64,000 bases of DNA from Escherichia coli (GTDB lineage Bacteria; Pseudomonadota; Gammaproteobacteria; Enterobacterales; Enterobacteriaceae), in the NCBI RefSeq assembly GCF_013122565.1, contig NZ_CP053258.1, one strand, 5' to 3'. This document shows positions 2,937 through 46,542 of the stretch, one piece after another. Each line of letters begins with the position of its first letter. The stretch's first letter is position 1. Below the pieces are notes generated by a model. The model was not told the DNA's origin, did no database searches, and saw only the letters and a program-made list of their open reading frames with translations. The position numbers and the translations under genes are program-made.

Positions 2937-2937
2937 G

Positions 2938-4008: not shown

Positions 4009-4748
4009 GTAACTGGCCTTATCCCCGCATCGTCGCTCATCGTGGCGGCGGTAAGCTGGCCCCCGAAAACACCCTGGCGGCAATCGACGTCGGGGCAAAA
4101 TACGGTCATAAGATGATCGAATTTGACGCGAAGTTATCGAAAGATGGCGAGATCTTTCTGCTCCATGATGACAACCTCGAACGCACCAGCAACGGCTGGG
4201 GCGTCGCGGGTGAACTGAACTGGCAGGATTTACTGCGCGTGGATGCGGGCAGTTGGTACAGCAAAGTGTTTAAAGGTGAGCCGCTGCCGTTGCTTTCGCA
4301 GGTGGCGGAACGCTGTCGTGAACACGGGATGATGGCGAATATCGAAATCAAACCCACCACTGGCACTGGACCATTAACGGGCAAAATGGTGGCGCTGGCG
4401 GCACGCGAACTGTGGGGCGGTATGACGCCGCCGCTGCTGTCATCGTTCGAAATTGATGCTTTAGAAGCCGCACAGCTGGCGGCACCGGAACTGCCGCGTG
4501 GTTTATTGCTTGATGAATGGCGCGACGACTGGCGAGAACTGACCGCGCGGCTGGGCTGCGTCTCTATTCATCTCAATCATAAGTTACTCGATAAAGCGCG
4601 AGTGATGCAGTTGAAAGACGCCGGATTACGGATTCTGGTTTATACCGTCAATAAACCCCAGCGCGCGGCAGAGTTGCTGCGCTGGGGCGTGGATTGCATC
4701 TGTACCGATGCGATTGACGTGATTGGTCCGAACTTTACGGCCCAATAG
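4005..4748 (+). CDS. ugpQ: glycerophosphodiester phosphodiesterase
   Basis: 247-aa GDPD-family protein (HRGG motif near the N-terminus); overlaps the ugpC stop. Confidence 0.9.
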
Positions 4749-7707: not shown

Positions 7708-7797
7708 GCGATCAGGAAGACCCTCGCGGAGAACCTGAAAGCACGACATTGCTCACATTGCTTCCAGTATTACTTAGCCAGCCGGGTGCTGGCTTTT
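7708..7797 (+). ncRNA. ryhB: small regulatory RNA RyhB (iron-sparing, Fur-repressed, Hfq-dependent)
   Basis: Sequence gcgatcaggaagaccctcgcggagaacctgaaagcacgacattgctcacattgcttccagtattacttagccagccgggtgctggc followed by a T-run is recognised as RyhB; it lies in the yhhY-yhhX intergenic region with an intrinsic terminator hairpin at its 3' end. Confidence 0.9.
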
Positions 7798-7918
7798 TTT
7801 TTGATCTTTCGTTCTCAATTTATCCACGGGAGTGCTTGTGTTCGTTATGCGCACTCCAGTAGGAACCACGTCCGCTTTGCGCTAAGGTGTAAATAACCAC
7901 CTTAAAAAGGACGAAATC

Positions 7919-20834: not shown

Positions 20835-22804
20835 CACGACTCGCCATTGGCAAACCCGCTCCCCTCGGCGCGCATTACGACGGTCAGGGCGTCAACTTCA
20901 CACTTTTCTCCGCTCATGCCGAGCGGGTAGAGCTGTGTGTCTTTGACGCCAATGGCCAGGAACATCGCTATGACTTGCCAGGGCACAGTGGCGACATTTG
21001 GCACGGTTATCTGCCGGATGCGCGCCCGGGTTTGCGTTATGGTTATCGCGTTCATGGCCCCTGGCAACCCGCCGAGGGGCATCGCTTTAACCCGGCGAAG
21101 TTGTTGATTGATCCTTGCGCGCGGCAAATTGACGGGGAATTCAAAGATAACCCGCTGCTGCACGCCGGTCATAATGAACCTGACTATCGCGACAACGCCG
21201 CCATTGCGCCGAAATGCGTAGTGGTGGTTGATCACTATGACTGGGAAGATGATGCCCCGCCGCGCACGCCGTGGGGCAGCACCATCATTTATGAAGCCCA
21301 TGTTAAAGGATTAACGTACCTGCACCCGGAGATCCCGGTCGAGATCCGTGGCACTTATAAAGCCCTGGGGCATCCGGTGATGATCAACTATTTGAAACAG
21401 TTGGGCATTACCGCGCTGGAACTACTGCCGGTGGCGCAGTTTGCCAGTGAACCACGTCTGCAACGCATGGGGCTAAGTAACTACTGGGGTTACAACCCGG
21501 TGGCGATGTTTGCGCTGCATCCGGCGTATGCCTGCTCGCCAGAAACGGCGCTGCATGAGTTTCGCGATGCAATCAAAGCACTGCATAAAGCGGGTATCGA
21601 AGTCATTCTTGATATCGTGCTCAACCATAGTGCGGAACTGGACCTCGACGGCCCGTTATTCTCGCTGCGTGGGATCGACAACCGTAGCTATTATTGGATA
21701 AGAGAAGACGGCGATTATCACAACTGGACCGGTTGTGGCAACACGCTCAATTTGAGTCATCCGGCGGTGGTGGAGTATGCCTGCACCTGCCTGCGTTATT
21801 GGGTAGAAACCTGCCACGTCGATGGTTTCCGCTTTGATCTGGCGGCAGTCATGGGCCGTACGCCAGAGTTCCGTCAGGATGCGCCGTTGTTTACCGCTAT
21901 CCAGAACTGCCCGGTGCTCTCGCAGGTGAAGTTAATTGCTGAACCGTGGGATATCGCTCCTGGTGGTTATCAGGTGGGAAATTTCCCGCCGCTGTTTGCC
22001 GAGTGGAACGATCATTTCCGCGATGCTGCCCGTCGTTTCTGGCTACATTATGATTTGCCTCTGGGGGCGTTTGCCGGGCGTTTTGCTGCCTCCAGTGATG
22101 TTTTTAAACGTAATGGTCGTCTGCCGAGTGCCGCGATTAATCTCGTCACCGCGCATGACGGTTTTACGCTTCGCGACTGCGTTTGTTTCAACCATAAACA
22201 CAATGAAGCAAACGGAGAAGAAAATCGCGACGGGACCAACAACAATTACAGTAACAATCATGGTAAAGAAGGGTTAGGCGGTTCTCTTGACCTGGTTGAA
22301 CGGCGGCGCGACAGTATTCACGCCCTGTTAACAACGTTGTTGCTCTCCCAGGGTACGCCGATGTTACTGGCCGGTGACGAACACGGTCACAGCCAGCATG
22401 GCAATAACAATGCCTACTGTCAGGATAACCAATTAACCTGGTTGGACTGGTCGCAGGCAAGCAGTGGTTTAACCGCATTTACCGCCGCGTTAATCCATCT
22501 GCGCAAGCGCATTCCCGCTTTGGTGGAGAATCGCTGGTGGGAAGAAGGCGACGGCAATGTCCGTTGGCTAAATCGATATGCTCAACCTTTAAGCACGGAT
22601 GAGTGGCAAAACGGGCCGAAACAGCTGCAAATTCTGCTCTCGGATCGCTTTTTGATCGCAATTAACGCCACGCTTGAGGTAACAGAGATTGTTTTACCTG
22701 CTGGGGAGTGGCACGCCATTCCCCCATTCGCTGGAGAGGATAACCCAGTGATTACGGCTGTCTGGCAGGGACCTGCACACGGATTGTGTGTGTTCCAGAG
22801 ATGA
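20831..22804 (+). CDS. glgX: glycogen debranching enzyme
   Basis: 657 aa, GH13; 4-nt overlap with glgB. Confidence 0.95.
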
Positions 22805-22821
22805 TAAAAAAGGAGTTAGTC

Positions 22822-24117
22822 ATGGTTAGTTTAGAGAAGAACGATCACTTAATGTTGGCGCGCCAGCTGCCATTGAAATCTGTTGCCCTGATACTGGCGG
22901 GAGGACGTGGTACCCGCCTGAAGGATTTAACCAATAAGCGAGCAAAACCGGCCGTACACTTCGGCGGTAAGTTCCGCATTATCGACTTTGCGCTGTCTAA
23001 CTGCATCAACTCCGGGATCCGTCGTATGGGCGTGATCACCCAGTACCAGTCCCACACTCTGGTGCAGCACATTCAGCGCGGCTGGTCATTCTTCAATGAA
23101 GAAATGAACGAGTTTGTCGATCTGCTGCCAGCACAGCAGAGAATGAAAGGGGAAAACTGGTATCGCGGCACCGCAGATGCGGTCACCCAAAACCTCGATA
23201 TTATCCGCCGTTATAAAGCGGAATACGTGGTGATCCTGGCGGGCGACCATATCTACAAGCAAGACTACTCGCGTATGCTTATCGATCACGTCGAAAAAGG
23301 CGCACGTTGCACCGTTGCTTGTATGCCAGTACCGATTGAAGAAGCCTCCGCATTTGGCGTTATGGCGGTTGATGAGAACGATAAAATTATCGAATTCGTT
23401 GAAAAACCTGCTAACCCACCGTCAATGCCGAACGATCCGAGCAAATCTCTGGCGAGTATGGGTATCTACGTCTTTGACGCCGACTATCTGTATGAACTGC
23501 TGGAAGAAGACGATCGCGATGAGAACTCCAGCCACGACTTTGGCAAAGATTTGATTCCCAAGATCACCGAAGCCGGTCTGGCCTATGCGCACCCGTTCCC
23601 GCTCTCTTGCGTACAATCCGACCCGGATGCCGAGCCGTACTGGCGCGATGTGGGTACGCTGGAAGCTTACTGGAAAGCGAACCTCGATCTGGCCTCTGTG
23701 GTGCCGGAACTGGATATGTACGATCGCAATTGGCCAATTCGCACCTACAATGAATCATTACCGCCAGCGAAATTCGTGCAGGATCGCTCCGGTAGCCACG
23801 GGATGACCCTTAACTCACTGGTATCCGGCGGTTGTGTGATCTCCGGTTCGGTGGTGGTGCAGTCCGTTCTGTTCTCGCGCGTTCGCGTGAATTCATTCTG
23901 CAACATTGATTCCGCCGTATTGTTACCGGAAGTATGGGTAGGTCGCTCGTGCCGTCTGCGCCGCTGCGTCATCGATCGTGCTTGTGTTATTCCGGAAGGC
24001 ATGGTGATTGGTGAAAACGCAGAGGAAGATGCACGTCGTTTCTATCGTTCAGAAGAAGGCATCGTGCTGGTAACGCGCGAAATGCTACGGAAGTTAGGGC
24101 ATAAACAGGAGCGATAA
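22822..24117 (+). CDS. glgC: glucose-1-phosphate adenylyltransferase
   Basis: 431 aa from [11 protein letters not shown]; nucleotidyltransferase motif GGRGTRL. Confidence 0.95.
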
Positions 24118-25550
24118 TGCAGGTTTTACATGTATGTTCAGAGATGTTCCCGCTGCTTAAAACCGGCGGTCTGGCTGATGTTATTGGGGCATTACCCGCA
24201 GCACAAATCGCAGACGGCGTTGACGCTCGCGTACTGTTGCCTGCATTTCCCGATATTCGCCGTGGCGTGACCGATGCGCAGGTAGTATCCCGTCGTGATA
24301 CCTTCGCCGGACATATCACGCTGTTGTTCGGTCATTACAACGGGGTTGGCATTTACCTGATTGACGCGCCGCATCTCTATGATCGTCCGGGAAGCCCGTA
24401 TCACGATACCAACTTATTTGCCTACACCGACAACGTATTGCGTTTTGCGCTGCTGGGGTGGGTTGGGGCAGAAATGGCCAGCGGGCTTGACCCATTCTGG
24501 CGTCCTGATGTGGTGCATGCGCACGACTGGCATGCAGGCCTTGCGCCTGCGTATCTGGCGGCGCGCGGGCGTCCTGCGAAGTCGGTGTTTACTGTGCACA
24601 ACCTGGCCTATCAAGGCATGTTTTATGCACATCACATGAATGACATCCAATTGCCATGGTCATTCTTTAATATTCATGGGCTGGAATTCAACGGACAAAT
24701 CTCTTTCCTGAAGGCCGGTCTGTACTATGCCGATCACATTACGGCGGTCAGTCCAACCTACGCTCGCGAGATCACTGAACCGCAGTTTGCCTACGGTATG
24801 GAAGGTCTGTTGCAACAGCGTCACCGTGAAGGGCGTCTTTCCGGCGTACTGAACGGCGTGGACGAGAAAATCTGGAGTCCAGAGACGGACTTACTGTTGG
24901 CCTCGCGCTACACCCGCGATACGTTGGAAGATAAAGCGGAAAATAAGCGCCAGTTACAAATCGCAATGGGGCTTAAGGTTGACGATAAAGTGCCGCTTTT
25001 TGCAGTGGTGAGCCGTCTGACCAGCCAGAAAGGTCTCGACCTGGTGCTGGAAGCCTTACCGGGCCTTCTGGAGCAGGGCGGGCAGCTGGCGCTACTCGGC
25101 GCGGGCGATCCGGTGCTGCAGGAAGGTTTTCTTGCGGCGGCAGCGGAATACCCCGGCCAGGTGGGCGTTCAGATTGGCTATCACGAAGCATTTTCGCATC
25201 GCATTATGGGCGGCGCGGACGTCATTCTGGTGCCCAGCCGTTTTGAACCGTGCGGCTTAACGCAACTTTATGGATTGAAGTACGGTACGCTGCCGTTAGT
25301 GCGGCGCACCGGTGGGCTTGCTGATACGGTTTCTGACTGTTCTCTTGAGAACCTTGCAGATGGCGTCGCCAGTGGGTTTGTCTTTGAAGATAGTAATGCC
25401 TGGTCGCTGTTACGGGCTATTCGACGTGCTTTTGTACTGTGGTCCCGTCCTTCACTGTGGCGGTTTGTGCAACGTCAGGCTATGGCAATGGATTTTAGCT
25501 GGCAGGTCGCGGCGAAGTCGTACCGTGAGCTTTACTATCGCTTGAAATAG
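24117..25550 (+). CDS. glgA: glycogen synthase
   Basis: 477 aa; KTGGL motif near the N-terminus; ATG overlaps the glgC stop. Confidence 0.95.
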
Positions 25551-28016
<2,466 letters not shown>

Positions 28017-28039
28017 GTTCACTAAAAAACAGAACGGGG

Positions 28040-28070
28040 CCAAAGGGTCCCGTTTTTTTTCGCCATCATT
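28040..28070 (+). terminator. intrinsic terminator after glgP
   Basis: Hairpin aacggggccaaagggtcccgtt followed by a run of 8 T. Confidence 0.7.
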
Positions 28071-28132
28071 TCGGAAAAGTGTCCAGAAGGGGCAAGGGGA
28101 CTCGGGGAGTATAATTTCGCCATTCAGAAAGA

Positions 28133-29650
28133 ATGGAAAGAATAATGCAAAACAGAAAATGGATTTTGACCTCGCTGGTAATGACTTTTTTCGGCATCCC
28201 CATACTGACGCAATTTTTGGCAGCGGTTGTTGCTATGCTGGGGGGCGGGCTTGCCGCTATTCTTGAGGTTTGCAATTTACTCTTTACGCCAGCAATTTAT
28301 CTTCTACTCAACGTCTTTATGCTGACTCTGGGGGCGATAATAATATTTTTCTCTGGTCGCGTGTGGGCGGGCGATAGTGCACCAGAAAAAAAAGAAATAG
28401 CCGTCTGGCGACAATGTCTTTTTTTAGTACCTGCTTTATTCACCCTGGTTGGCTGGATAATCACGCTACATCTGGCAGATTATCAATTTCGCCAGATGGG
28501 AGACGGTTGGTTGGCAAACCTTATGCTTCCCTGGTTGGGCGTTTTTTTAGTCTCATTAGTGGGTGGTGAGTACTGGTGGATAGTCATTATACCCGTTGGC
28601 GCGCATATCAGTTTTTCGCTGGGGTACGGTTGGCCGACCAGACATCTTTTAACGGGCACGTCCGGGTTACGTTGCCGTAATTCCCTCTTGTTTATCCTTC
28701 TCATGCTTGGTTTTGTCGCCGGTTACCAGGCTTATTTATATAAACAGCTTAATCCCGGCGTCGGTGTGCGTGAAAATATTGATACCTGGGCCTGGCGACC
28801 CGATAAACTCAATAATCAACTGACACCACTGCGTGGTAAACCGCAAATTCAGTTCACGCAAAACTGGCCGCGACTCGATGGTGCTACGGCGGCGTACCCA
28901 ATTTATGCCTCTGCATTTTATGCTTTAAGCGTTATACCGGAAGATTTTCACGCCAGGAAATATCTGGAGAACTCTCGTACCCCCGATGCGTATAACAGGA
29001 TTGTTAAAGGTGATGCCGATATTATTTTTGTGGCGCAGCCCTCCGGTGGGCAGAAAAAACGCGCTGAGGAATCGGGCGTCACTTTGCTGTACACGCCTTT
29101 TGCCCGTGAAGCGTTTGTTTTCATCGTCAATGCAGATAACCCGGTTAATTCCCTGACCGAACAACAAGTGCGTGACATCTTCAGTGGCGCAATTACCAAC
29201 TGGCGCACGGTTGGCGGTAACGATCAGGAGATCCAGACCTGGCAACGCCCGGAAGACTCAGGTAGCCAGACGGTGATGCAGGCGCAGGTCATGAAAAATG
29301 TACGTATGATCTCGCCGCAGGAGACCGAAGTGGCTGAAATGATGGGAGGGATGATTAAAGTTGTTGCCGAATACCGTAATACAAACAACTCAATAGGCTA
29401 CACCTTCCGCTATTACGCAACGCAAATGAATACCGATAAGAATATCAAATTGTTAGCGATTAACGGTATTGCACCGACTGCGGAAAACATCCGTAACGGC
29501 AAATATCCCTATATCGTCGATGCCTTTATGGTAACGCGGGAAAATATGACGTCAGAAACGCAAAAACTGGTGGAATGGTTTTTAACGCCGCAGGGGCAAA
29601 GCCTGGTGGAAGATGTGGGTTATGTGCCGATGTATCCAACAATGAAATAA
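28133..29650 (+). CDS. membrane-embedded protein with C-terminal PstS-like periplasmic binding domain
   Basis: 505 aa. N-terminal ~200 aa contains about 5-6 hydrophobic helices; C-terminal ~290 aa resembles PstS-family binding proteins (GATAAYPIYASAFY, WQRPEDSGSQTVMQ, VGYVPMYP). Start could be 28145. Confidence 0.55.
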   Translation: MERIMQNRKWILTSLVMTFFGIPILTQFLAAVVAMLGGGLAAILEVCNLLFTPAIYLLLNVFMLTLGAIIIFFSGRVWAGDSAPEKKEIAVWRQCLFLVPALFTLVGWIITLHLADYQFRQMGDGWLANLMLPWLGVFLVSLVGGEYWWIVIIPVGAHISFSLGYGWPTRHLLTGTSGLRCRNSLLFILLMLGFVAGYQAYLYKQLNPGVGVRENIDTWAWRPDKLNNQLTPLRGKPQIQFTQNWPRLDGATAAYPIYASAFYALSVIPEDFHARKYLENSRTPDAYNRIVKGDADIIFVAQPSGGQKKRAEESGVTLLYTPFAREAFVFIVNADNPVNSLTEQQVRDIFSGAITNWRTVGGNDQEIQTWQRPEDSGSQTVMQAQVMKNVRMISPQETEVAEMMGGMIKVVAEYRNTNNSIGYTFRYYATQMNTDKNIKLLAINGIAPTAENIRNGKYPYIVDAFMVTRENMTSETQKLVEWFLTPQGQSLVEDVGYVPMYPTMK

Positions 29651-29675
29651 CCCTTGAGAGAAGGGAATCAGGGCG

Positions 29676-30677
29676 ATGAATAAATTCACAGAAGTTTTAC
29701 TGCTAGGTGCGGTATTACTGGCGGGATACGCCGACCGGGAAGCATACTATAACAGCGTCAGGGAAGAAGAGAGTCATGGACTGACTTCTCTGCGGGGACA
29801 GCCTGAATTACGTTACAGCGAAGATTGGTCAAGATGGCCCAGAGTGTACGGCGCTACCGCCTTATACCCCCTGTATGCTTCTGCATATTATGAATTAGTA
29901 CCGGAGCCGAAAGATGCGGATCAAACCTCACTGGCCTGGCAGGCGTATGGTCTGCAGCAAACCCGAACAGCTGAAGCCTACGATAATCTGATTAAAGGTA
30001 CTGCGACTGTTATTTTTGTCGCGCAACCTTCTGAAGGGCAGAAAAAACGTGCAGAAGAAGCGGGAGTTAAGCTGAAATATACCGCGTTTGCCCGCGAAGC
30101 CTTTGTCTTTATCGTTGATATCAAAAACCCGGTGAATTCACTCAGCGAACAGCAGGTCAAAGACATTTTTAGCGGTAAAGTGAGTCGCTGGAATAAAGTC
30201 GGTGGCAGCGACGAACGCATAAAAGTGTGGCAGCGCCCGGAAGATTCCGGTAGCCAGACGGTAATGCAAGAGTTAGTTATGCAAGGCACACCGATGTTAC
30301 CCGCTAAAAAATCAACCATGGTTGATCTTATGGGTGGGTTAATTACCGAAGTCGCCGACTATCAAAACACGCCATCTTCAATCGGTTATACCTTTTATTA
30401 TTATGTTACGCGTATGAATAGTAATATGCTCAAAATGCGCAAGCAGATCAAATTATTAGCCATCAACGGCGTCGCCCCCACTGAGGAAAATATTCGCAAC
30501 GGATCTTATCCCTATATTGTGGACGCCTATATGGTGACCCGTGAAAATCCAGCACCGGAAACGCAAAAGTTTGTCGACTGTTTTTTAAGCCCGCAGGGGC
30601 AACAGTTGGTGCAGGATGTGGGGTATGTGCCTTTATACCCGATTACGAACTCTCGTAAAAAGGATTTTGAAAAATGA
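29676..30677 (+). CDS. secreted PstS-like periplasmic binding-domain protein, paralog of the preceding gene
   Basis: 333 aa with N-terminal signal peptide; shares GATALYPLYASAYY, WQRPEDSGSQTVMQ and VGYVPLYP with the upstream gene. Confidence 0.55.
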   Translation: MNKFTEVLLLGAVLLAGYADREAYYNSVREEESHGLTSLRGQPELRYSEDWSRWPRVYGATALYPLYASAYYELVPEPKDADQTSLAWQAYGLQQTRTAEAYDNLIKGTATVIFVAQPSEGQKKRAEEAGVKLKYTAFAREAFVFIVDIKNPVNSLSEQQVKDIFSGKVSRWNKVGGSDERIKVWQRPEDSGSQTVMQELVMQGTPMLPAKKSTMVDLMGGLITEVADYQNTPSSIGYTFYYYVTRMNSNMLKMRKQIKLLAINGVAPTEENIRNGSYPYIVDAYMVTRENPAPETQKFVDCFLSPQGQQLVQDVGYVPLYPITNSRKKDFEK

Positions 30678-30952
30678 AAATATCAATAAGTAAACTTAGT
30701 GAATTTAAAAAGGTTTCTTTATTATTTCTGGCCTACTCATTATTTATTACTGCTGGGTGTGTCAGTCATCAGAATGTTACTGAAAGTATAAAAGAAAAAC
30801 AGAGTTATAATATTACAAGGATACAGGGGAAACCCGTATTACAAATTCCCGAAAAGGAAGCAACGTGGTTGACCGTGGCGAGGGCCACTACGTTATATCC
30901 ATTGTACTCTTCGGCATATCACATGGTTATAGTTGAACCCAGTGGACACTGA
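30674..30952 (+). pseudogene. truncated third PstS-like paralog with lipoprotein signal peptide
   Basis: 92 aa; lipobox ITAGC, then only the first ~45 aa of the binding domain (IQGKPVLQIPE...ATTLYPLYSSAYH) before a stop; ATGA overlap with the upstream gene; very AT-rich DNA follows. Confidence 0.5.
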
Positions 30953-31027
30953 TTCTGATAATATAGAAAAATCAATGATTAACGTCTCTGTTAATATGGG
31001 TATTACTCAGTAAAGGTAAGAAAAATT

Positions 31028-31219
31028 ATGCTGAAACGATTATTTTTTATTATTCTTATTTTATCCGCAACGGGATGTTCTATTGTTGACACCTCTCTGG
31101 AGAAAAAAGACTTACTTAATTTATCTGTATATGAAAATAATATTGTTGATAATTCAGTGTTAATAAGAGTTGTAGCCAGTCAAAAGGTAAAAGAGACCTG
31201 GTATATATGCAACGAATAA
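31028..31219 (+). CDS. small putative lipoprotein (hypothetical)
   Basis: 63 aa; signal peptide with lipobox LSATGC; in the AT-rich block. Confidence 0.35.
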   Translation: MLKRLFFIILILSATGCSIVDTSLEKKDLLNLSVYENNIVDNSVLIRVVASQKVKETWYICNE

Positions 31220-31671
31220 TAGAAAAAGCTTTAACGGTTTTGCTTATGATTTACGCCGGATCAGCAGCTGCCGAAGGTAAAGTGAACGATTTATGCCACA
31301 TAGGTGATCGTGTAGATAAACTTGAGATTACAAATTATCCTCATGATTACGAGTCGCTAGTTGCAGTTGATGAGAAGCGATTGAATGAAATTTATAAATA
31401 CAAGGTTGAAATTACCTATCTTGATAATAAAGAAAGTAAAAAAATTGTTGAACTATTACAAATGGATTATGCGGAACAAGAAGAAAATGTTACTGATGTG
31501 AGGTGGCGGGTGAATATCACTTCATATGGAAATAAAAAATGTGATATCTATTTTGATGGTTTTGGCTTATGTGGAAAAATTAATGGTGAGAATGTCTGTT
31601 TCAGGCATAACGAAATGATACGGTGGATTGAGTCTCATATTTCTGTATTTCTACATAGTGTTAACGAATGA
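31207..31671 (+). CDS. small secreted hypothetical protein
   Basis: 154 aa; signal peptide ending AGSAAAEG; AT-rich codon usage. Confidence 0.4.
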   Translation: MQRIIEKALTVLLMIYAGSAAAEGKVNDLCHIGDRVDKLEITNYPHDYESLVAVDEKRLNEIYKYKVEITYLDNKESKKIVELLQMDYAEQEENVTDVRWRVNITSYGNKKCDIYFDGFGLCGKINGENVCFRHNEMIRWIESHISVFLHSVNE

Positions 31672-31690
31672 ATGTGAAAAAGGAATTTAT

Positions 31691-32143
31691 ATGCAATTTT
31701 TATTTAAAAATAATAAATTATTTTTTATAAGGATAAGGTTAGTTTCGGTTATTTTATTTTTATTTATGAGTACTTCCTTGTATGCTAAAAATCCATGTGA
31801 AGGACTTAAAGGTGATTTACCTGCGGCGCAGTTAATTCCACTTAAGAAAAATATTGCCAGGCAGTTGAATTCTGAAATGGAACAGGTAGTAGAAGTTAAT
31901 AAAGTTGAAATATTATCTTTCGATACCTTGCAGGAATGGTCAATTGTTGGTGTCGCTACCGGAGTATCAGATGATGCATTGTTAATTTATAAAGGGAATA
32001 TCACTAAAACTGATTATGTGGCATTATTTGGAGGCGCTGCAAGTATTAACGATGACATGATCCAATGGATAAACCAGAAAGCGCCGGGAATTCCAGATAA
32101 GTTGGCACAATGTTTTGCGTGGGGAGCTGTATATCGTGATTGA
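31691..32143 (+). CDS. small secreted hypothetical protein
   Basis: 150 aa from MQFLFKNNK with aagga Shine-Dalgarno 8 nt upstream; signal peptide ending LYAKNP. Confidence 0.4.
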   Translation: MQFLFKNNKLFFIRIRLVSVILFLFMSTSLYAKNPCEGLKGDLPAAQLIPLKKNIARQLNSEMEQVVEVNKVEILSFDTLQEWSIVGVATGVSDDALLIYKGNITKTDYVALFGGAASINDDMIQWINQKAPGIPDKLAQCFAWGAVYRD

Positions 32144-32161
32144 TAATAAAAGGACAACCAA

Positions 32162-32869
32162 ATGGAATTAGTTGATACGTTATTTGCAAGCCTCGCCGGT
32201 ACTGATCCTTTCACAGGCGTGGATATTACGATTGCCAAATGCGAATCGGCATATTGGGCCGAGGGCATTGTTCAGCTGCTCATTAACCAGGCCCTGGATG
32301 AAGGGGAAAAGTTCGTCGGTGCTGCCGGTCTTGAGGGATTGCTTCGATATGATGTCACATTAAATATTGGCTTAACGTCCAGCAATGTATGGCCGGGGTT
32401 TTCCCTCGATACCGCCACCATTGGCCGTCTTTGTGCCTGTGGTGCTGACTTTGGATTTGACCCTTATATCAGTGATGTACCAGATGTTCAATGTGACCTG
32501 AACACGACAAATGACTTCACCGTTCAATTTACGGCGATGCTCAACCCGGAGCGGGCGATCATAGCAAAGCGCCCGCTTAAAAAATGTGACTCCTGGATTG
32601 AGGATGTCTATATCTTTCAGGTCTTTAAAGAAGCCTGGAAGTTTCATAACGATAACAGCTTACGAGGATTTCGCGATAAGCAGGCTGAACTGAAACTCTA
32701 CGCGCGTCATTACTCAGTGGAAAATTGTATAGAGGAAAGCTGCCGTGACTGTAATAGTTGTATTCGGCCCAGCTTTTCCCTTTCTCGTAGTGCCATTATT
32801 CGCCTGAACGCGGCGAATGCTCGTTTTGTTTATCAACCGTTTACACGCGACCAGCGGGCGAGGGGGTAA
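32162..32869 (+). CDS. hypothetical protein, Cys-rich C-terminal part
   Basis: 235-aa ORF with no recognisable family; stop lies 2 nt before the next start. Confidence 0.4.
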   Translation: MELVDTLFASLAGTDPFTGVDITIAKCESAYWAEGIVQLLINQALDEGEKFVGAAGLEGLLRYDVTLNIGLTSSNVWPGFSLDTATIGRLCACGADFGFDPYISDVPDVQCDLNTTNDFTVQFTAMLNPERAIIAKRPLKKCDSWIEDVYIFQVFKEAWKFHNDNSLRGFRDKQAELKLYARHYSVENCIEESCRDCNSCIRPSFSLSRSAIIRLNAANARFVYQPFTRDQRARG

Positions 32870-32871
32870 TT

Positions 32872-33660
32872 ATGCAACCCAGTCCCGCCATGCAGAATAT
32901 TATTGCCCATGCCTGGGCGATATTTCATTTTTATCCTGCACCGCAACAGTTCAATATTTGCGTTCCTTGCTGTGTCAGCGAAGAGGTCGCGCAGGCGTTA
33001 CGGCAAACACCGTTACGTCAATTAACCGTTGAAATGATATATGAATGGAACAGTAGCGCGAGGCCTTTTGAACAACAGAATGATGAAATCCGTTACCTCC
33101 TTCCGAGACTGCTGGAATTACTGGCTCACGGTCATTGTCCTGCCATAAATGAAGAGTTATGCCTGAAACGTATTGGCGCTATTTCCCTGGACACCTGGCA
33201 GCCGGAGGAGCGTGATGTACTTACCGATTTTTCCCGCCAGTATATTCGCGATTTATTACTTACCCCGACATTGACCGATCTTGAATCTGCCCTCGTGATG
33301 TTTCATTTTGCCGGACTATCTATAACGGCTTTATTAGATGAGGCGCTGAACACGCCTGGCTATTGGGCTATCGCTTCGCTGGCCTATTTTTTGTATATCA
33401 AGCGTCCAAACGGCGAATTACGTAACGCGTTTATCTCACGCAAGCCGGATGGTGAAGTGATAACGCAGCAAATTAACGCCTGGATTGCGCAATCATGTCA
33501 CGCGCTGGCAGAACGCGCCGCGGCGGCGATTGAATGCTCGCCATCCCTTCCCGGCGGTGGACACACGGAGTACAGTGTTGACCTGAGCTACCTGATTGAC
33601 GAAAGCCTTTGTGCGCTTGTTGATTATCAATTGCTCTGGACGATGGACCGTAATGAATAA
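32872..33660 (+). CDS. hypothetical protein, paralog A of a tandem pair
   Basis: 262 aa beginning MQPSPAMQ; shares N-terminal Cys motif, NDEIRYLLPRL and other blocks with the next gene. Confidence 0.45.
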   Translation: MQPSPAMQNIIAHAWAIFHFYPAPQQFNICVPCCVSEEVAQALRQTPLRQLTVEMIYEWNSSARPFEQQNDEIRYLLPRLLELLAHGHCPAINEELCLKRIGAISLDTWQPEERDVLTDFSRQYIRDLLLTPTLTDLESALVMFHFAGLSITALLDEALNTPGYWAIASLAYFLYIKRPNGELRNAFISRKPDGEVITQQINAWIAQSCHALAERAAAAIECSPSLPGGGHTEYSVDLSYLIDESLCALVDYQLLWTMDRNE

Positions 33661-33671
33661 GGAGATTCACA

Positions 33672-34448
33672 ATGCAACCCAGCCCCGCCATGCAGGCATT
33701 AATTGAGCAGATTTATCATATTTTTCGTCGTTATCCGGTGCCGTCGAGATTTCATGTTTGTTGTCCTTACTGCTTTAGCGAAGAACAACAACAAGCCTTA
33801 AAAGGGGTTTCACTGCGTGCCATACCTTTCCCTTTATTACATGCCTGGGGAACAAGTATTGGCCCTAACCCACAAAATGATAATGAGATTCGCTATTTAT
33901 TACCCAGATTGTTTGACTTTATTGCCCAAAGGCAATTTCCAGGCATTTATGAAGGCTGCTGTTTACAGAGAATAGCAGAAGCAGATAACCAGAACTGGCG
34001 AGCGGATGAACTACAAATAATTAGCGATTTCGCCTATTTATATATGCAGGATTGGGTGTCGGTTAAGGAAGTTGTGGAGCTGGAAATAATATTAGAAATG
34101 TTTTATCGCGGTGGTATAAAGATTGAACCCTTACTTGACGCTATTATGTCCATTTCCGGTTACTGGCCGACGGCGTCAATGGCATGTTTGCTCTGGCGTA
34201 ACAGTAAAGAATACGTCGAAAATAGCGAGTTTGAGCAGAGTGATGATGATAAAACCATTACCACCCAAATCAATACCTGGGCTAGAAATAATCATCCTTT
34301 GCTGAAAGAACGCGCGCGGCAAGCGATTGAGAACCCGCTAAAACAGCCCGAACAGGGCACACGATATCAGGTCTGGGAAGACGACTGGATGATTGATGAG
34401 TGTTTGTGCGCAATGTATGACGCATCATCCGAATCATCAGGACAATAA
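33672..34448 (+). CDS. hypothetical protein, paralog B of a tandem pair
   Basis: 258 aa beginning MQPSPAMQ; paralogous to 32872..33660. Confidence 0.45.
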   Translation: MQPSPAMQALIEQIYHIFRRYPVPSRFHVCCPYCFSEEQQQALKGVSLRAIPFPLLHAWGTSIGPNPQNDNEIRYLLPRLFDFIAQRQFPGIYEGCCLQRIAEADNQNWRADELQIISDFAYLYMQDWVSVKEVVELEIILEMFYRGGIKIEPLLDAIMSISGYWPTASMACLLWRNSKEYVENSEFEQSDDDKTITTQINTWARNNHPLLKERARQAIENPLKQPEQGTRYQVWEDDWMIDECLCAMYDASSESSGQ

Positions 34449-34450
34449 AG

Positions 34451-34633
34451 ATGAATAAAATCAAACTTTATATTCCTCCGCTATTTCTCGGCTTTGTTAT
34501 TGTGCCGCTGTTGGTGTGGCCGACGGTGGTTGCGCTGGCGGCTTTTGGTATCACGCTGAGTTTTCTGGGGGAGTTACTGTTCTTAATCCCGATCATAGTC
34601 CGACGTATGTCACTTCTGGAAGCACAACTTTGA
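34451..34633 (+). CDS. small hydrophobic membrane protein, possibly the N-terminal part of a stop-interrupted gene
   Basis: 60 aa with two predicted transmembrane helices; same reading frame as the following ORF, separated by a single TGA. Confidence 0.3.
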   Translation: MNKIKLYIPPLFLGFVIVPLLVWPTVVALAAFGITLSFLGELLFLIPIIVRRMSLLEAQL

Positions 34634-34666
34634 TTATCGGCTGAATATACGCTTGTTTTCTGTGCA

Positions 34667-35050
34667 ATGGTGGGCGTTGGTTGGCAATTCTCTCGCAGAA
34701 CGTCACCTGAATTAAAAAACAGACTGCATTTTTGGCTGGTCTTTACACCGGTTTATTTCTGGTTGCTTCTGTGGAATATCATTTTCTATATCGGGCCAGC
34801 GAAAAATGCATTGCTGGAAAATATCCGCAATTTCTTTTTAACAATTGTCTGGTTACCGCTGAATTTTTCGCCACTTTGGTCCCAACCGTGGACTGACTTT
34901 GTCGGTCCAATAAGCGCACAGCTTGGTTTTGCGTTGGGATATTATTGCCAGTGGCGTAGCAAAAATAGAAGCCAGGGGCAGAAGTGGGGTGAGTGGGGAA
35001 CGTGTCTTAGTTTTGTTACGTTGGGTATGATGGCATGGGTTTTGCGGTAA
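34667..35050 (+). CDS. hydrophobic membrane protein, possibly the C-terminal part of a stop-interrupted gene
   Basis: 127 aa with predicted transmembrane helices; in frame with 34451..34633. Confidence 0.3.
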   Translation: MVGVGWQFSRRTSPELKNRLHFWLVFTPVYFWLLLWNIIFYIGPAKNALLENIRNFFLTIVWLPLNFSPLWSQPWTDFVGPISAQLGFALGYYCQWRSKNRSQGQKWGEWGTCLSFVTLGMMAWVLR

Positions 35051-35100
35051 TTTCCTGAATCAAAAAGCAGGCCAGATTGTTGACGAAGTGCGCTTTGTTC

Positions 35101-35199
35101 ATGCCGGATGCGGCGTGAACGCCTTATTCGGCCTACAAAATCATGCAAATTCAATATATTGCATAAACCACGTAGGCTTGATAAGCGTAGCGCATCAGG
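35101..35199. repeat. BIME: two inverted REP units
   Basis: gccggatgcggcgtgaacgccttattcggcctac and gtaggcttgataagcgtagcgcatcagg in inverted orientation. Confidence 0.7.
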
Positions 35200-35263
35200 A
35201 AATTTTGTGTTTGTCATCAGTCTCAGGCCAGATTGAAATCTGACCTGATCACCTTACGTTAAT

Positions 35264-36769
35264 TTACGACGCCAGCGACAACTTCTGCTGCGTATACTCC
35301 ACCAGCCACTGACTCACACGAGATTGTTGATCCGCATTCAGCCACATGCCTTGTTTTGTGCGACGCCACAGGGCATCGTCGGCGCGGCGGACCCATTCGT
35401 GATCCACCAGGTATTTCAGCTCCGCTTCGTAGAACTCATGACCGAAATCCTCCCCGAGGTCGCTTATCGCCCCTGCATTGCCGAGCAGCAGTTCGCTGTT
35501 GCTGCCGTAAGTGCGCGCGTAGTGACGTGCCAGCGATTCAGTCAGGAATGGATAGCGACGGCGCAGACGAGCGGCATAATCGTCGCGGTCACCTTCAATG
35601 GCACCACCCGGCAGCACGCTCTCTTTCGTCCACGCCGGGCCAATACCCTGATAATACGGCGTCAGTTTTTCCAGCGCATGTTCCGCCAGTTTGCGGTAGG
35701 TGGTCAGCTTACCGCCGAATACCGACAGCAGCGGTGCTTTGCCGTTTTCATCATGGATATCAAGGGTGTAATCACGGGTAATAGCCTGCGGCGAGTCGGA
35801 CTCATCATCACACAGCGGACGCACACCGGAGTAGGTCCAGACGATATCATCACGGCTTAGCTGCTTTTTAAAGTGCGTGTTATACACTTTCAGCAGGTAA
35901 TTGATTTCACTCTCTTCAATCTTCACTGCTTTCGGATCACCTTTGTATTCCACATCGGTGGTGCCGATGATTGAAAACTCGTCCATCCACGGGATCACGA
36001 ACACAATACGTTTATCTTCGTTTTGCAGAATGTAGGCTTGCTTCTGGGTATGCACGCGTGGTACCACAATATGGCTGCCTTTGATCAGGCGAATGCCATA
36101 AGGTGAGGGCAGATGCATCCCGTCGTCGAAGAACTGTTTCACCCACGGGCCGGTGGCGTTAACCAGGCCGCGCGCTTGCCAGCTATATTTTTTGCCGGTA
36201 TCGATATCTTCCGCTTCCACAATCCACAGGCCGTTTTCGCGGCGAGCAGAGGTGGCGCGAGTCCGAGTAAGCACTTCGCCGCCTTTACGCACCACCATCT
36301 GGGCGTTGGCGAGTACCAGACGGGCGTCGTCTACCCAACAGTCAGAATATTCGAATCCGCGCTTAATTTCCGGTTTTAACACTGAGTTTGCGCCAAAACG
36401 CAAACCGGTTGATCCCGGCAGGCTGGTGCGTTTACCCAGATGATCGTACATAAACAGACCAATGCGAATCATCCACGCCGGGCGCAGATGCGGACGATGC
36501 GGCAGGCGAAAACGCATCGGGAAGGCGATATGAGGGGCCATTTTCAGTAGCACTTCACGTTCAGCCAGCGCCTCGCTGACCAGGCGGAATTCATAGTGCT
36601 CAAGGTAGCGCAGGCCACCGTGAATGAGTTTTGAACTGGCGGAAGAGGTCGCACAAGCGAGATCCTGCGCCTCCAGCATCAGCACGGATAAACCGCGTCC
36701 AGCGGCGTCTGCCGCGATACCAGCACCATTGATGCCGCCCCCTATCACAATCAGATCTTTGGTTTCCAT
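35264..36769 (-). CDS. glpD: aerobic glycerol-3-phosphate dehydrogenase
   Basis: 501 aa from METKDLIVIGGGINGAG (FAD-binding Rossmann motif). Confidence 0.93.
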   Translation of the reverse strand: METKDLIVIGGGINGAGIAADAAGRGLSVLMLEAQDLACATSSASSKLIHGGLRYLEHYEFRLVSEALAEREVLLKMAPHIAFPMRFRLPHRPHLRPAWMIRIGLFMYDHLGKRTSLPGSTGLRFGANSVLKPEIKRGFEYSDCWVDDARLVLANAQMVVRKGGEVLTRTRATSARRENGLWIVEAEDIDTGKKYSWQARGLVNATGPWVKQFFDDGMHLPSPYGIRLIKGSHIVVPRVHTQKQAYILQNEDKRIVFVIPWMDEFSIIGTTDVEYKGDPKAVKIEESEINYLLKVYNTHFKKQLSRDDIVWTYSGVRPLCDDESDSPQAITRDYTLDIHDENGKAPLLSVFGGKLTTYRKLAEHALEKLTPYYQGIGPAWTKESVLPGGAIEGDRDDYAARLRRRYPFLTESLARHYARTYGSNSELLLGNAGAISDLGEDFGHEFYEAELKYLVDHEWVRRADDALWRRTKQGMWLNADQQSRVSQWLVEYTQQKLSLAS

Positions 36770-36880
36770 GCTGCCCTCATTCACTTTCGTTAAAGCTCAT
36801 AAATGTTCGTTATCGAACATATTAGCAAAGAATCGCGCTTTAGGTAACATTGAAAAAACATTTTAGAGTGATATGTATAA

Positions 36881-37285
<405 letters not shown>

Positions 37286-37317
37286 CGCTTTATACTGTCC
37301 CCTTTTGTGTGGAATAA

Positions 37318-38160
<843 letters not shown>

Positions 38161-38176
38161 TTCCAGGGATTTAGAA

Positions 38177-38935
38177 ATGAAACAAACACAACGTCACAAC
38201 GGTATTATCGAACTGGTTAAACAGCAGGGTTATGTCAGTACCGAGGAACTGGTGGAGCACTTCTCCGTCAGCCCGCAGACTATTCGCCGCGACCTCAATG
38301 AGCTGGCAGAGCAAAACCTGATCCTGCGCCATCATGGCGGTGCGGCGCTGCCTTCCAGTTCGGTTAACACGCCGTGGCACGATCGTAAAGCCACCCAGAC
38401 CGAAGAAAAAGAGCGCATCGCCCGCAAAGTGGCGGAGCAAATCCCCAATGGCTCGACGCTGTTTATCGATATCGGCACCACGCCGGAAGCGGTGGCGCAC
38501 GCGCTGCTCAATCACAGCAATTTGCGCATTGTGACTAACAATCTCAACGTTGCTAACACGCTGATGGTAAAAGAAGATTTTCGCATCATTCTCGCCGGTG
38601 GCGAATTACGTAGCCGCGATGGTGGGATCATAGGCGAAGCGACGCTCGATTTTATCTCTCAGTTCCGCCTCGACTTTGGCATTCTGGGGATCAGCGGCAT
38701 CGATAGCGACGGCTCGCTGCTGGAATTCGATTACCACGAAGTTCGCACCAAACGCGCCATTATTGAGAACTCGCGCCACGTTATGCTGGTGGTCGATCAC
38801 TCGAAATTTGGCCGTAACGCGATGGTCAATATGGGTAGCATCAGCATGGTCGATGCCGTCTACACCGACGCCCCGCCGCCTGCGGGCGTGATGCAGGTGC
38901 TGACGGACCACCATATTCAACTGGAGCTGTGCTGA
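38177..38935 (+). CDS. glpR: glycerol-3-phosphate regulon repressor (DeoR family)
   Basis: 252 aa from MKQTQRHNGIIELVKQQGYV (helix-turn-helix); the longer ORF start 38126 was rejected. Confidence 0.9.
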   Translation: MKQTQRHNGIIELVKQQGYVSTEELVEHFSVSPQTIRRDLNELAEQNLILRHHGGAALPSSSVNTPWHDRKATQTEEKERIARKVAEQIPNGSTLFIDIGTTPEAVAHALLNHSNLRIVTNNLNVANTLMVKEDFRIILAGGELRSRDGGIIGEATLDFISQFRLDFGILGISGIDSDGSLLEFDYHEVRTKRAIIENSRHVMLVVDHSKFGRNAMVNMGSISMVDAVYTDAPPPAGVMQVLTDHHIQLELC

Positions 38936-40515
38936 TCCTGCACGGCTTCCCACGTCAGACCAAAACGCGCCAGGTATTTGCGTAGCCGATCTGCGTCGTT
39001 GACGCTGGCTTTGCCCTGGCGCGAAACATCAAAAAGCTGGCGACCGGCAGCAGAAAGCGACTTTGCCTGGCGGCAGATAGCGATAACGTGTTCCAGTTGC
39101 AGTCGGTCAAAGAGATCGATGTTTTCTGCCTCCGCGCCCAGCAACGCCGTAAGCGCGGAAGGACGGGTCTCCTGCCAGTTATAGCGCAGACGGTTTATCT
39201 CATCTTCAACCACTTCCAGAGTGATGCGTCCGCTAGTGGCAAAGGTAGCCATCCGCGTGACGCTGGCAGAAAGCTCGCGAAAGTTACCGCGCCATGTTGC
39301 CTGGGGAGATGTCGCAAAGGCCAGCCAGGCACGCCGTGCTTCGGTGTTAAAACGTACGCTGTCGCCGGTAAGCGCGGCGTGTCGCTCCACTTCATAATCC
39401 AGGTTCGGTTCGATATCTTCCTGGCGCTGGCGTAGCCCCGGCAGGGTGAAGGTCCAGAGATTGATCCGCGCGTACAAGTCTTCGCGAAATTTGCCTTCGG
39501 CAACCAGCTGGCGCAAATCGCGCACCGTTCCGGCGATAAGCTGAAAATCACTGCTCACCTGGCGATCGCTGCCAAACGGATAAAAGGTTTTTTCTTCAAT
39601 GGCTTTAAGCAGCATTGCCTGTTCGTCTGCGCCCAGTTCGCCAATCTCATCAAGAAACAACATTCCGCCGTTGGCGCTGCGTAATAATCCTTCACGAGAT
39701 TCCCGCGCCCCGGTAAACGCGCCTTTCACATGACCAAACAGCGTCGACATGGCGGTATCGCCGCGCAGGGTTGCGCAGTTCACTTCCACAAACGCGCCGC
39801 TAAACTGATGCCGCGCCTGTTTTAATTCAAATATACGTCGCGCCAGAAATGACTTACCTGCACCGGTCGGGCCATTAAGCAGAATTGGCGCGCGGGATTT
39901 GATCGCTACTTTTTCAATCTGCTCAATCATGCGGTTGAAGTGGGGGTTACGCGTGGCAATGCCGGACTTAAGAAAATCGAGCGTTTGCTGCCGTTCCTCG
40001 GCAAAGCGGCTGGCGATGGCGTTATAACGGCTTAAATCGAGATCGATAATCGTCACTTCACCTGCGCCGCACGGCTGTTCTTTTTTGCGCGGAGGGGAAG
40101 ATTGTATCAGCCGGGCGGGCAGGTAACGCGCTTCCGCCAGCAGAAACCAGCAAATCTGTGCGACGTGGGTGCCAGTGGTGATGTGAATTAAATAGTCTTC
40201 TTTATCAGGTTGAAACGCGTAGCCACGGGCGAAATCATGCAGGCAGGCGTAAACCTCTTCGAAATCCCACGGGTTATGCAGTTCAATCTCAACGCTCACC
40301 ACTTCAGTTTCTGGCGAAACGCTGGCGATATCGCATTTAAGCGTTTCAAACAGCGAGCGCGAGCGGGCGTCGTGCAACAATTCCAGTCGATCGATGACTA
40401 ACGATTCTTGCTGGCATAAACAGAGTGTTGGACGCCATTTCGACCAGCGCTGACTGCCGCGTCCGGCATAATCCAGTACGGTGCCGACAAAGCCAAAAGC
40501 CACTGTTTTACGCAT
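38917..40515 (-). CDS. rtcR: sigma-54-dependent transcriptional activator of rtcBA
   Basis: 532 aa; AAA+ sigma-54 activator core ([14 protein letters not shown]) and C-terminal helix-turn-helix; divergent from rtcBA. Confidence 0.9.
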
Positions 40516-41928: not shown

Positions 41929-42960
<1,032 letters not shown>

Positions 42961-43009
42961 AACCCCTGCCGGATCAGACTCATCAGTGTGACTATCCGGT
43001 AGAGGTAAA

Positions 43010-43495
43010 TTACTCCAGAGTAATGGGATACAGTAAGGTAAGTGACTGGAATGGTGAAGGTACAAAGGCATACTTCAGATAGAAATTGCGTACTGAATCG
43101 TCTAAAGCATGAACAATGAGCGCACGAACCCCTACCTGTTGAGCTATGGACATTGTGCGATAGACTGCATCTTTCAACAATGCGACGCCCAGCCCTTTAC
43201 CTGCCCAGGCTTGATCAATTGCCAGTCTGCCTAATACGACAACAGGCAACGATTCGGGAGCATTACGTCGCATGGCTCCAGGGGTCAAATTACGTTGAAT
43301 ACTGCCTGTAGAAAGGCAGTAATAGCCGATTACCTGACGGGTATTGGCAATACAGATAACGTAAACACGAGACAGACCGGAGCTGTGATTTTTTAACTCT
43401 TTCTTTTTTAGCCATTCATTCATCCCGTGATCGGAACAGCAAAAGTCAGCCAGATTATGTTCAGACGTTAGGGGAGTAGGAGGCGTTATTCCCAT
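43010..43495 (-). CDS. GNAT-family acetyltransferase toxin of a type II toxin-antitoxin pair (TacT/KacT/ItaT-like)
   Basis: 161 aa; GNAT acetyl-CoA motif VLGRLAIDQAWAGKGLGVALL; 10-nt overlap with the upstream DUF1778-type gene. Confidence 0.7.
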   Translation of the reverse strand: MGITPPTPLTSEHNLADFCCSDHGMNEWLKKKELKNHSSGLSRVYVICIANTRQVIGYYCLSTGSIQRNLTPGAMRRNAPESLPVVVLGRLAIDQAWAGKGLGVALLKDAVYRTMSIAQQVGVRALIVHALDDSVRNFYLKYAFVPSPFQSLTLLYPITLE

Positions 43496-43764
43496 GGCGA
43501 TTTACGATTCATCAACGCGTTAATTTTGGCCTGACGCTCAGCAGTGATGGGGGCGTCCAGGGCAGCCAGAAATGCATCGTATTGCTCGTCATCAACGATG
43601 AATAGTCGTTGATCTAATAAGATGTCTTGCGCTTCACGGCATGCGGCATCCAGCATAAAATCAGTGCGCGATTTTGCGACCAGATTCGCTGCCATATCAA
43701 TCAGGTCACGCTGTGAGGCTTTCGCCCTGATATTGATTGGCGCTTCTTTGCTTTCCGGTTTCAT
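43486..43764 (-). CDS. DUF1778-type (ribbon-helix-helix) antitoxin partner of the GNAT toxin
   Basis: 92 aa; N-terminal PINIRAKASQRDLIDMAANL typical of TacA/KacA-like antitoxins; first in the operon. Confidence 0.7.
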   Translation of the reverse strand: MKPESKEAPINIRAKASQRDLIDMAANLVAKSRTDFMLDAACREAQDILLDQRLFIVDDEQYDAFLAALDAPITAERQAKINALMNRKSPWE

Positions 43765-43830
43765 ATTGATGAGCCTGTAGTGCGATTTTATATACAGTAT
43801 AAAGAGTGTACATAAAAACGCTATACAAAC

Positions 43831-46542
<2,712 letters not shown>

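Follow-up and report, generated by a model that had tools for sequence, protein, structure and literature searches.

The closest described system to the locus reported here is ataRT2, the second GNAT module of E. coli O157:H7 Sakai (ECs4261–ECs4262), whose toxin has Tyr139 as its catalytic residue (Ovchinnikov et al., PMC7470980). O157 AtaT2 expressed alone kills or arrests E. coli, and this effect is abolished by co-expression of AtaR2 or by the Y139A substitution; AtaT2 and AtaR2 were co-purified in a ~99-kDa complex, a mass that fits a T2A4 stoichiometry (PMC7470980). Together with acetyl-CoA, AtaT2 blocks in vitro translation, and ribosome profiling revealed that it causes stalling at all four Gly codons, without induction of ppGpp (PMC7470980). 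Mass spectrometry detected a +42 Da acetyl group that AtaT2 adds to glycyl-tRNAGly and that is removed by peptidyl-tRNA hydrolase (PMC7470980). In an independent LC/MS study, AtaT2 acetylated Gly-tRNAGly only, in vivo (PMC9177977). AtaR2 is a protein without glycine and can hence be translated during toxin activity, as its authors point out (PMC7470980).

Among the related toxins, TacT is Gly-tRNAGly-specific in vivo and the tRNA specificity of AtaT is broader or different (PMC9177977); AtaT is 29.2% identical to AtaT2 (PMC7470980). Toxicity of TacT needs A93, Y140, K36, R77, R78, and K33 together with R91, and is abolished by K36E alone or by K33E combined with R91E (PMC4942678). The KacAT, AtaRT, and TacAT operons are autoregulated via palindromic operators bound by the ribbon-helix-helix (RHH) domains of their antitoxins (PMC6698736).

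The window analysed here is a 64,000-nucleotide stretch of contig NZ_CP053258.1, in which two overlapping genes are located between rtcA and malT (Table 1). An earlier note on this DNA, made from the letters alone, had described a 92-aa DUF1778 protein and a 161-aa GNAT protein encoded on the minus strand with a 10-nt overlap, and this was borne out by the list of open reading frames and by a Pfam search. The 92-aa protein matched TacA1 (PF08681, formerly DUF1778) at 2.9e-19, while matches of the 161-aa protein to the GNAT domains Acetyltransf_7, _1, and _10 were weak (E about 1e-4). Neither protein was recognised by NCBIfam or PADLOC models, which leaves Pfam as the source of curated-family support, and the RefSeq names are only 'GNAT family N-acetyltransferase' and 'DUF1778 domain-containing protein'. 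On the operon strand, ataR2 is upstream and ataT2 is second. An overlap in which a start codon lies within the end of the preceding gene is an arrangement typical of translational coupling, and the two genes of this copy are probably coupled in this way. The same 10-nt overlap was found in every relative examined, these being the cassettes of a Salmonella plasmid, of Pectobacterium, and of Serratia. No second GNAT/DUF1778 pair was found elsewhere in the window.

Table 1. Coordinates of the ataR2–ataT2 module and of neighbouring features in the window
Feature	Position	Strand	Description
ataR2 (antitoxin)	43486..43764	−	92-aa ORF, ATG start; DUF1778/TacA-type ribbon-helix-helix protein
ataT2 (toxin)	43010..43495	−	161-aa ORF, ATG start; GNAT aminoacyl-tRNA acetyltransferase
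ataR2/ataT2 overlap	43486..43495	−	10 nt, ATGGGAATAA; toxin start codon within the antitoxin 3' end
rtcA flank	41929..42960	+	ORF beside ataT2
malT flank	43831..46536	−	ORF beside ataR2
Segment absent from K-12-type genomes	42938..43823	.	last 7 rtcA codons, hairpin, ataT2, ataR2, promoter/operator
Altered rtcA 3' end	42938..42960	+	C-terminus …VMITKLTD versus …TRVSIE* in K-12
Promoter and candidate operator	43765..43833	−	fills the malT–ataR2 spacer (66 bp from malT stop to ataR2 start)
Hairpin between convergent rtcA/ataT2 stops	42962..43006	.	inverted repeat; minus-strand stem followed by UUUUAAU

A search of all solved structures revealed that the toxin is identical at 158 of 161 positions to chain B of PDB entry 7F37 (E = 9.5e-105), and the antitoxin at 91 of 92 positions to chain C of the same entry (E = 4.7e-55). 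Judged by these comparisons, both the pairing and the matches are far beyond chance. Chains B and C are homologues of the toxin and the antitoxin that were co-crystallised. We take 7F37 to be the deposit of the AtaT2–AtaR2 complex, presumably from Yashiro et al. 2021, Cell Reports; its probable assignment to AtaRT2 was made via sequence identity and not from the depositors' text.

The genomic context pointed the same way. In O157:H7 strain ATCC 35150, the gene order is rtcR-rtcB-rtcA-GNAT-DUF1778-malT-malP, with spacing identical to that in the window. The primers published for the O157 genes (PMC7470980, Table S1) could be placed at the ends of the window genes: AtaT2-F at the toxin start (43475–43495, one mismatch), AtaT2-R at the toxin stop (43010–43039, no mismatches), and AtaR2-F at the antitoxin start (43741–43764, one mismatch). 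Start and stop codons of both genes are the same as in the published expression constructs. The Y139A mutagenic primers, as given in Table S1 of PMC7470980, found no match in the ataT2 gene of the window, which looks like a mistake in the published table and not like a feature of the locus. Based on the near-identity to 7F37, the shared locus in O157, the presence of Tyr139, and the primer matches, we therefore conclude, with a probability of about 0.92, that the module is an allele of AtaR2–AtaT2, i.e., a type II toxin–antitoxin operon acting as described for O157:H7. AtaR2–AtaT2 is already known and has been characterised biochemically and structurally, and the window copy is near-identical to it. 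The generic labels of the two genes can give way to AtaT2 and AtaR2, names to which a biochemical mechanism is already attached, and the value of the result lies mainly in correct annotation.

The earlier note had placed the pair among the tRNA-acetylating TacT/KacT/ItaT families. The superfamily was right, but the specific member, AtaT2–AtaR2, had not been named. The alignments that it proposed gave 43% identity to TacT and E about 1e-17 for KacT, both more distant than AtaT2 (98%); no chain named ItaT was present among the solved-structure matches. A better alignment to housekeeping acetyltransferases had been named as the outcome that would speak against a toxin, and the closest match among solved structures was instead the crystallised AtaT2-type protein, at 98% identity. 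The assays of toxicity and rescue that the earlier note called for are on record for the O157 allele (PMC7470980).

To define the conservation of individual residues, 116 toxin homologues, down to about 42% identity, were compared. Y139 of the window toxin lies within the motif R-N-F-Y-L-K, aligns with Y140 of TacT, and is Tyr in 114 of the 116 homologues. A92 and the acetyl-CoA loop G99-K-G101-L-G103 are intact, and are invariant among homologues. Thus the catalytic and acetyl-CoA-binding residues, a check of which the earlier note had suggested, are all conserved. The basic groove is represented by K32, K35, R76, R77, and R90, which correspond to K33, K36, R77, R78, and R91 of TacT; the alignment is gap-free, with TacT numbering higher by one, and the equivalents of the TacT toxicity residues are almost invariant among homologues. 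The antitoxin has no glycine among its 92 residues (the toxin has 11). At a glycine content of about 7%, the chance of this is roughly 0.001, and the antitoxins of 14 other close alleles and of three relatives' cassettes at 86–89% identity are also glycine-free. We conclude that the lack of glycine is a conserved feature and not an accident of sampling.

Compared with O157, the toxin gene contains three non-synonymous (A5P, A33E, and A71T) and three synonymous differences, and the antitoxin contains L57V, V57 itself being common. The exact antitoxin allele is a common one (>1000 contigs), and the exact toxin allele, WP_171460239.1, is on record from one contig, a chromosome of 4.82 Mb with the label E. 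coli. P5, E33, and T71 are private to the window allele; A33 and A71 are present in all 13 other full-length close toxin alleles listed. Residue 33 belongs to a conserved W-L-K-K-K-A-L-K-N stretch and has the counterparts of TacT K33 and K36 on either side; of the 116 homologues, 109 have Ala there, six have another small residue (S, G, V, or T), one has Asp, and none has Glu. A33E is the only feature that marks the window copy out. At the position of the upstream in-frame ATG of O157, which is used by some annotations to give a 94-aa antitoxin, the window has ATC, and so the 92-aa form, which the published work used, is the only antitoxin that this copy can encode.

Other explanations of the locus were weighed against this evidence. 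A housekeeping or metabolic function of the GNAT protein, with a fortuitous small ORF upstream, could be suggested by the weakness of its Pfam matches and by its generic RefSeq label, but is scarcely credible for a protein near-identical to a verified toxin that was co-crystallised with this type of antitoxin, and whose gene overlaps that of a TacA-family antitoxin by 10 nt in every relative examined. A housekeeping role is also at odds with the lack of the module in 5026 of the 5426 E. coli genomes, and the published toxicity and rescue of a protein that differs at three of 161 residues refute it (PMC7470980). It is also very improbable that the module is a member of another characterised GNAT toxin subfamily (TacT, ItaT, AtaT, or KacT) and recognises tRNA differently or more broadly. 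These subfamilies do share its fold, operon organisation, and antitoxin family, and TacT is the next-best solved relative; however, the toxin has 98% identity to the protein in 7F37 versus 43% to TacT, with AtaT and KacT far weaker, and AtaT2 was measured to be Gly-specific both in vitro and in vivo (PMC7470980, PMC9177977). The family assignment to another subfamily is refuted by the sequence comparisons, while a shift of specificity could still result from the three private substitutions.

The private substitutions are also central to an explanation that accepts the AtaRT2 identity and holds that the toxin is attenuated or inactive via A33E (with or without A71T and A5P), so that the locus is mainly an antitoxin/repressor or is decaying. 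We consider this unlikely, though it deserves to be kept in view. The changes occur on an allele from a single contig, the other listed close alleles all being A33/A71, and are paired with an antitoxin of the common type; position 33 is a near-invariant Ala, never Glu, and is flanked by groove lysines whose TacT counterparts matter for toxicity. Glu at such a position, between two groove lysines, may therefore reduce activity. Against this, the toxin ORF is intact, every residue proven essential in TacT or AtaT2 is retained (for TacT K146, see below), one homologue carries Asp at position 33, and three non-synonymous versus three synonymous differences from O157 give no signature of decay. A stronger version, in which the A33E toxin is a natural hypomorph or has altered tRNA recognition, and a chromosomal AtaT2 is being disarmed while its antitoxin/repressor is kept, is doubtful. 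The preferred reading remains that of an AtaR2–AtaT2 allele whose toxin, to judge from its sequence, is probably active. The A33E allele, carried by one lineage, might be used as a natural probe of the groove that binds tRNA.

In K-12 MG1655, the stop codons of malT and rtcA are 42 bp apart, with nothing between them. The earlier note had stated this adjacency and had called the module accessory, correctly on both counts: of 5426 complete E. coli genomes, 394 (~7%) have the module and 5026 have an uninterrupted rtcA–malT junction. The locus is thus dimorphic in E. coli. All 394 carriers have a single copy, always chromosomal, at 97.8–98.9% identity; strains of O157:H7, O55:H7, and O145 are among them, and entries from Shigella dysenteriae occur in the antitoxin cluster. 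A scan of species-representative genomes for the toxin yielded 46 pattern matches, none of which was confirmed, and the species representatives are evidently without the module.

The limits of the segment were determined by BLAST and MAFFT comparisons with K-12 and three other empty-site genomes. Homology to the K-12-type arrangement stops at 42937 and restarts at ~43824–43827; therefore, some 46 bp of the K-12-type spacer give way to about 886 bp here. The location between rtcA and malT given in the earlier note stands, but its word 'inserted' is a little loose. The right edge of the segment can be placed only to within a few bases (43823–43826), as AAACTCAC is present in both forms. The rtcA gene of O157:H7 has the same MITKLTD end as that of the window. 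No integrase, transposase, or mobility genes were found in the segment, and no clear target duplication was seen; a clean insertion with target-site duplication was considered and not established, as the two forms differ by replacement. The motif GCCGGATC…TATCCGG is present in the hairpins of both forms, with TAAAT/CAAAC versus TAAAC, which is suggestive but too short to indicate homology.

The ~200 bp of malT beside the module are 96–99% identical to O157 and 85–90% identical to K-12. Co-transfer of this flank with the module was considered and rejected: CFSAN004176, a genome with an empty site, carries this malT 3' allele too (99.1%), and the O157 MalT protein WP_000906970.1 occurs in an empty-site genome. 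K-12 is an outlier at the malT 3' end, and the rtcA–malT junction is highly polymorphic generally. Since the flanks are very variable among ordinary E. coli, a recent transfer of the module is not claimed. Over 20 kb, the window is about 94–96% identical to its best E. coli matches, with 98.5–98.9% for the module itself, and by the first measure the host looks like a divergent Escherichia lineage labelled E. coli by GenBank.

The spacer between malT and ataR2 is taken up by an imperfect inverted repeat with arms of 27 nt (43770–43796 and 43807–43833) and with TGTA/TACA cores 15–17 bp apart. A promoter-like site, TGTACA-16-TAAAAT, is located inside it at 43812→43785. Three promoter-like sites were found in the region versus 2.0 expected in shuffled sequence, i.e., not above chance, and the presence of two candidate −10 boxes makes the promoter assignment ambiguous; a TATACT box aligns with TATAAT/TATAGT of relatives. 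When the spacer was aligned with upstream regions of AtaT2-like cassettes from the Salmonella plasmid, Pectobacterium, and Serratia, the boxes TGTGTAGC, TACAC, TTGTATA, and CTACAC were found to be conserved across cassettes in unrelated contexts, while similarity was gone further upstream. By analogy with the palindromic operators of the related modules, the inverted repeat is a candidate AtaR2 operator.

As RNA, the spacer is predicted to fold into a hairpin of −27.2 kcal/mol (z = −6.65), and the AGG that precedes the ataR2 start codon is part of it. Speculatively, in RNA reading through from malT, this hairpin might hide the ribosome-binding site of ataR2, and the cassette would thus be insulated from its upstream neighbour. 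At the other end, the hairpin between the convergent stops is predicted for either strand, at −20 kcal/mol (z = −2.5) for the minus and −22.5 kcal/mol (z = −5.2) for the plus strand. It was not flagged in a terminator scan, because its loop is too long; it is plausible that it acts as a terminator for ataRT2, shared with the convergent rtcA.

Taken together with the published mechanism, these features suggest how the module would act. A promoter in the 66-bp spacer after malT would drive the operon, antitoxin first. AtaT2, a dimeric GNAT enzyme, would acetylate glycine-charged tRNA; the acetylated Gly-tRNAGly would be unusable in elongation, ribosomes would stall at all four Gly codons, and growth would stop. 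AtaR2 would bind and inhibit the toxin in a T2A4 heterohexamer, and its N-terminal RHH domain most likely represses the operon via the nested inverted repeats over the promoter. Being free of glycine, AtaR2 could go on being synthesised during toxin activity, to the benefit of recovery, and peptidyl-tRNA hydrolase would recycle the acetylated tRNA.

Of the known systems, AtaR2–AtaT2 of O157:H7 is the closest. It shares with the window module the rtcA–malT locus, Tyr139, and a glycine-free antitoxin, and is almost the same in its spacer, promoter region, and downstream hairpin; it differs by the A5P, A33E, and A71T changes in the toxin, L57V in the antitoxin, and the change of the upstream ATG to ATC. 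The next-best solved relatives of the toxin are structures of Salmonella TacT (5FVJ and 7F36; E = 2.4e-42, 66 of 153 residues identical). Like the window module, TacA–TacT of Salmonella Typhimurium consists of a GNAT toxin and a DUF1778/TacA antitoxin, and the catalytic Tyr, the acetyl-CoA Ala, and the basic groove residues of the two toxins align one to one. TacT and AtaT2 both acetylate aminoacyl-tRNA, and Pth detoxifies in both systems. However, TacT is only 43% identical to the window toxin and comes from another host and locus, and its K146, which is needed for TacT toxicity, is replaced by Val in the window toxin and by Glu or Asp in most AtaT2-like relatives. AtaR–AtaT of E. coli O157:H7 and KacA–KacT of Klebsiella pneumoniae share the same architecture and the T2A4 heterohexamer, and both are autoregulated through palindromic operators, but their toxins are distant in sequence (E about 1e-19 for AtaT and about 1e-17 for KacT in the solved-structure search). 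Identity to TacT, AtaT, or KacT is in no case at the level of orthologues.

Outside Escherichia, the nearest toxins are 72–77% identical and are encoded in the same bare two-gene cassette, in unrelated contexts; no published characterisation of the Salmonella, Pectobacterium, and Serratia cassettes was found. The Salmonella cassette lies between traD and traT of an F-like conjugative plasmid, the Pectobacterium cassette is chromosomal, by ugp genes and a variable patch (with reverse-transcriptase, HicB, and SymE genes in one strain), and the Serratia cassette is near a ter operon. All three consist of 92-aa and 160-aa genes, have glycine-free antitoxins, and keep the upstream boxes and the TATAAT element. 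Conservation extends from the operator boxes to the toxin stop, with nothing conserved downstream of the stop, and these ends therefore define the mobile unit: the cassette moves between plasmids and chromosomes as a bare promoter-to-stop unit.

The module formed by ataR2 and ataT2, in the exact allele carried here, was absent from all 5426 complete E. coli genomes in the collection, and over the 20 kb compared (window positions 20000–40000) the closest of these genomes was only ca. 94–96% identical. The toxin, WP_171460239.1, is recorded on a 4.82-Mb chromosome labelled E. coli. The window seems to derive from a divergent lineage of Escherichia that carries the E. coli label. Most E. coli genomes covered only 81–85% of the same 20 kb, and the block between glgP and glpD is therefore variable. 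Two PstS-family phosphate-binding proteins and several hypothetical and membrane proteins are encoded there, and in the E. coli record that matches the block an ankyrin-repeat protein is encoded as well. A search of the whole window against Rfam revealed no RNA families beyond the two listed below.

Additional features of the window
Feature	Position	Strand	Remarks
Accessory block	28133–35100		Between glgP and glpD
RyhB sRNA	7737–7801	+	Rfam match, 83.1 bits, above gathering score
ES036/CssrF sRNA	35137–35179	+	Rfam match, 39.4 bits, above gathering score

In module-bearing genomes, the C-terminus of rtcA (42938–42960; …TRVSIE* in K-12) is rewritten by the incoming segment, and RtcA is therefore 343 aa long in the window and 342 aa in O157:H7, rather than 338 aa. 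The empty rtcA–malT junction was itself unusually polymorphic across E. coli genomes. Over 231 bp, it was at least 99% identical to K-12 in 1706 of 5436 records and just 80–90% identical in 2778; at the malT 3' end, K-12 carries the minority haplotype. The annotation of strain BCE049 lists rtcA as a pseudogene, interrupted by an internal stop.

At the antitoxin start region (43765–43770), O157:H7 has ATGAATATG, which accounts for the 94-aa protein beginning with MNM in some annotations, while the window has ATCAATATG, which abolishes the upstream ATG. When the window was searched allowing up to three mismatches, the published AtaT2-Y139A-F/R primers (GAATGAAAAAGCCCATACGTTTGCTAAATCG…; PMC7470980, Supplementary Table S1) matched neither ataT2 nor any other part of it. 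The listed primers appear to come from another GNAT toxin, and the Table S1 entry is therefore probably an error.

In Pectobacterium GCA_001039065.1 (L007, positions 1669–4102), a pair of genes coding for an STM3845-family protein and a reverse transcriptase, which is retron-like, lies directly upstream of the AtaT2-like cassette. The same adjoining stretch of this one strain also carries genes for a HicB-like protein and the SymE toxin. Since sister Pectobacterium strains lack the reverse transcriptase pair and the HicB-like and SymE genes, it seems to be a small defence/toxin–antitoxin patch of variable gene content.
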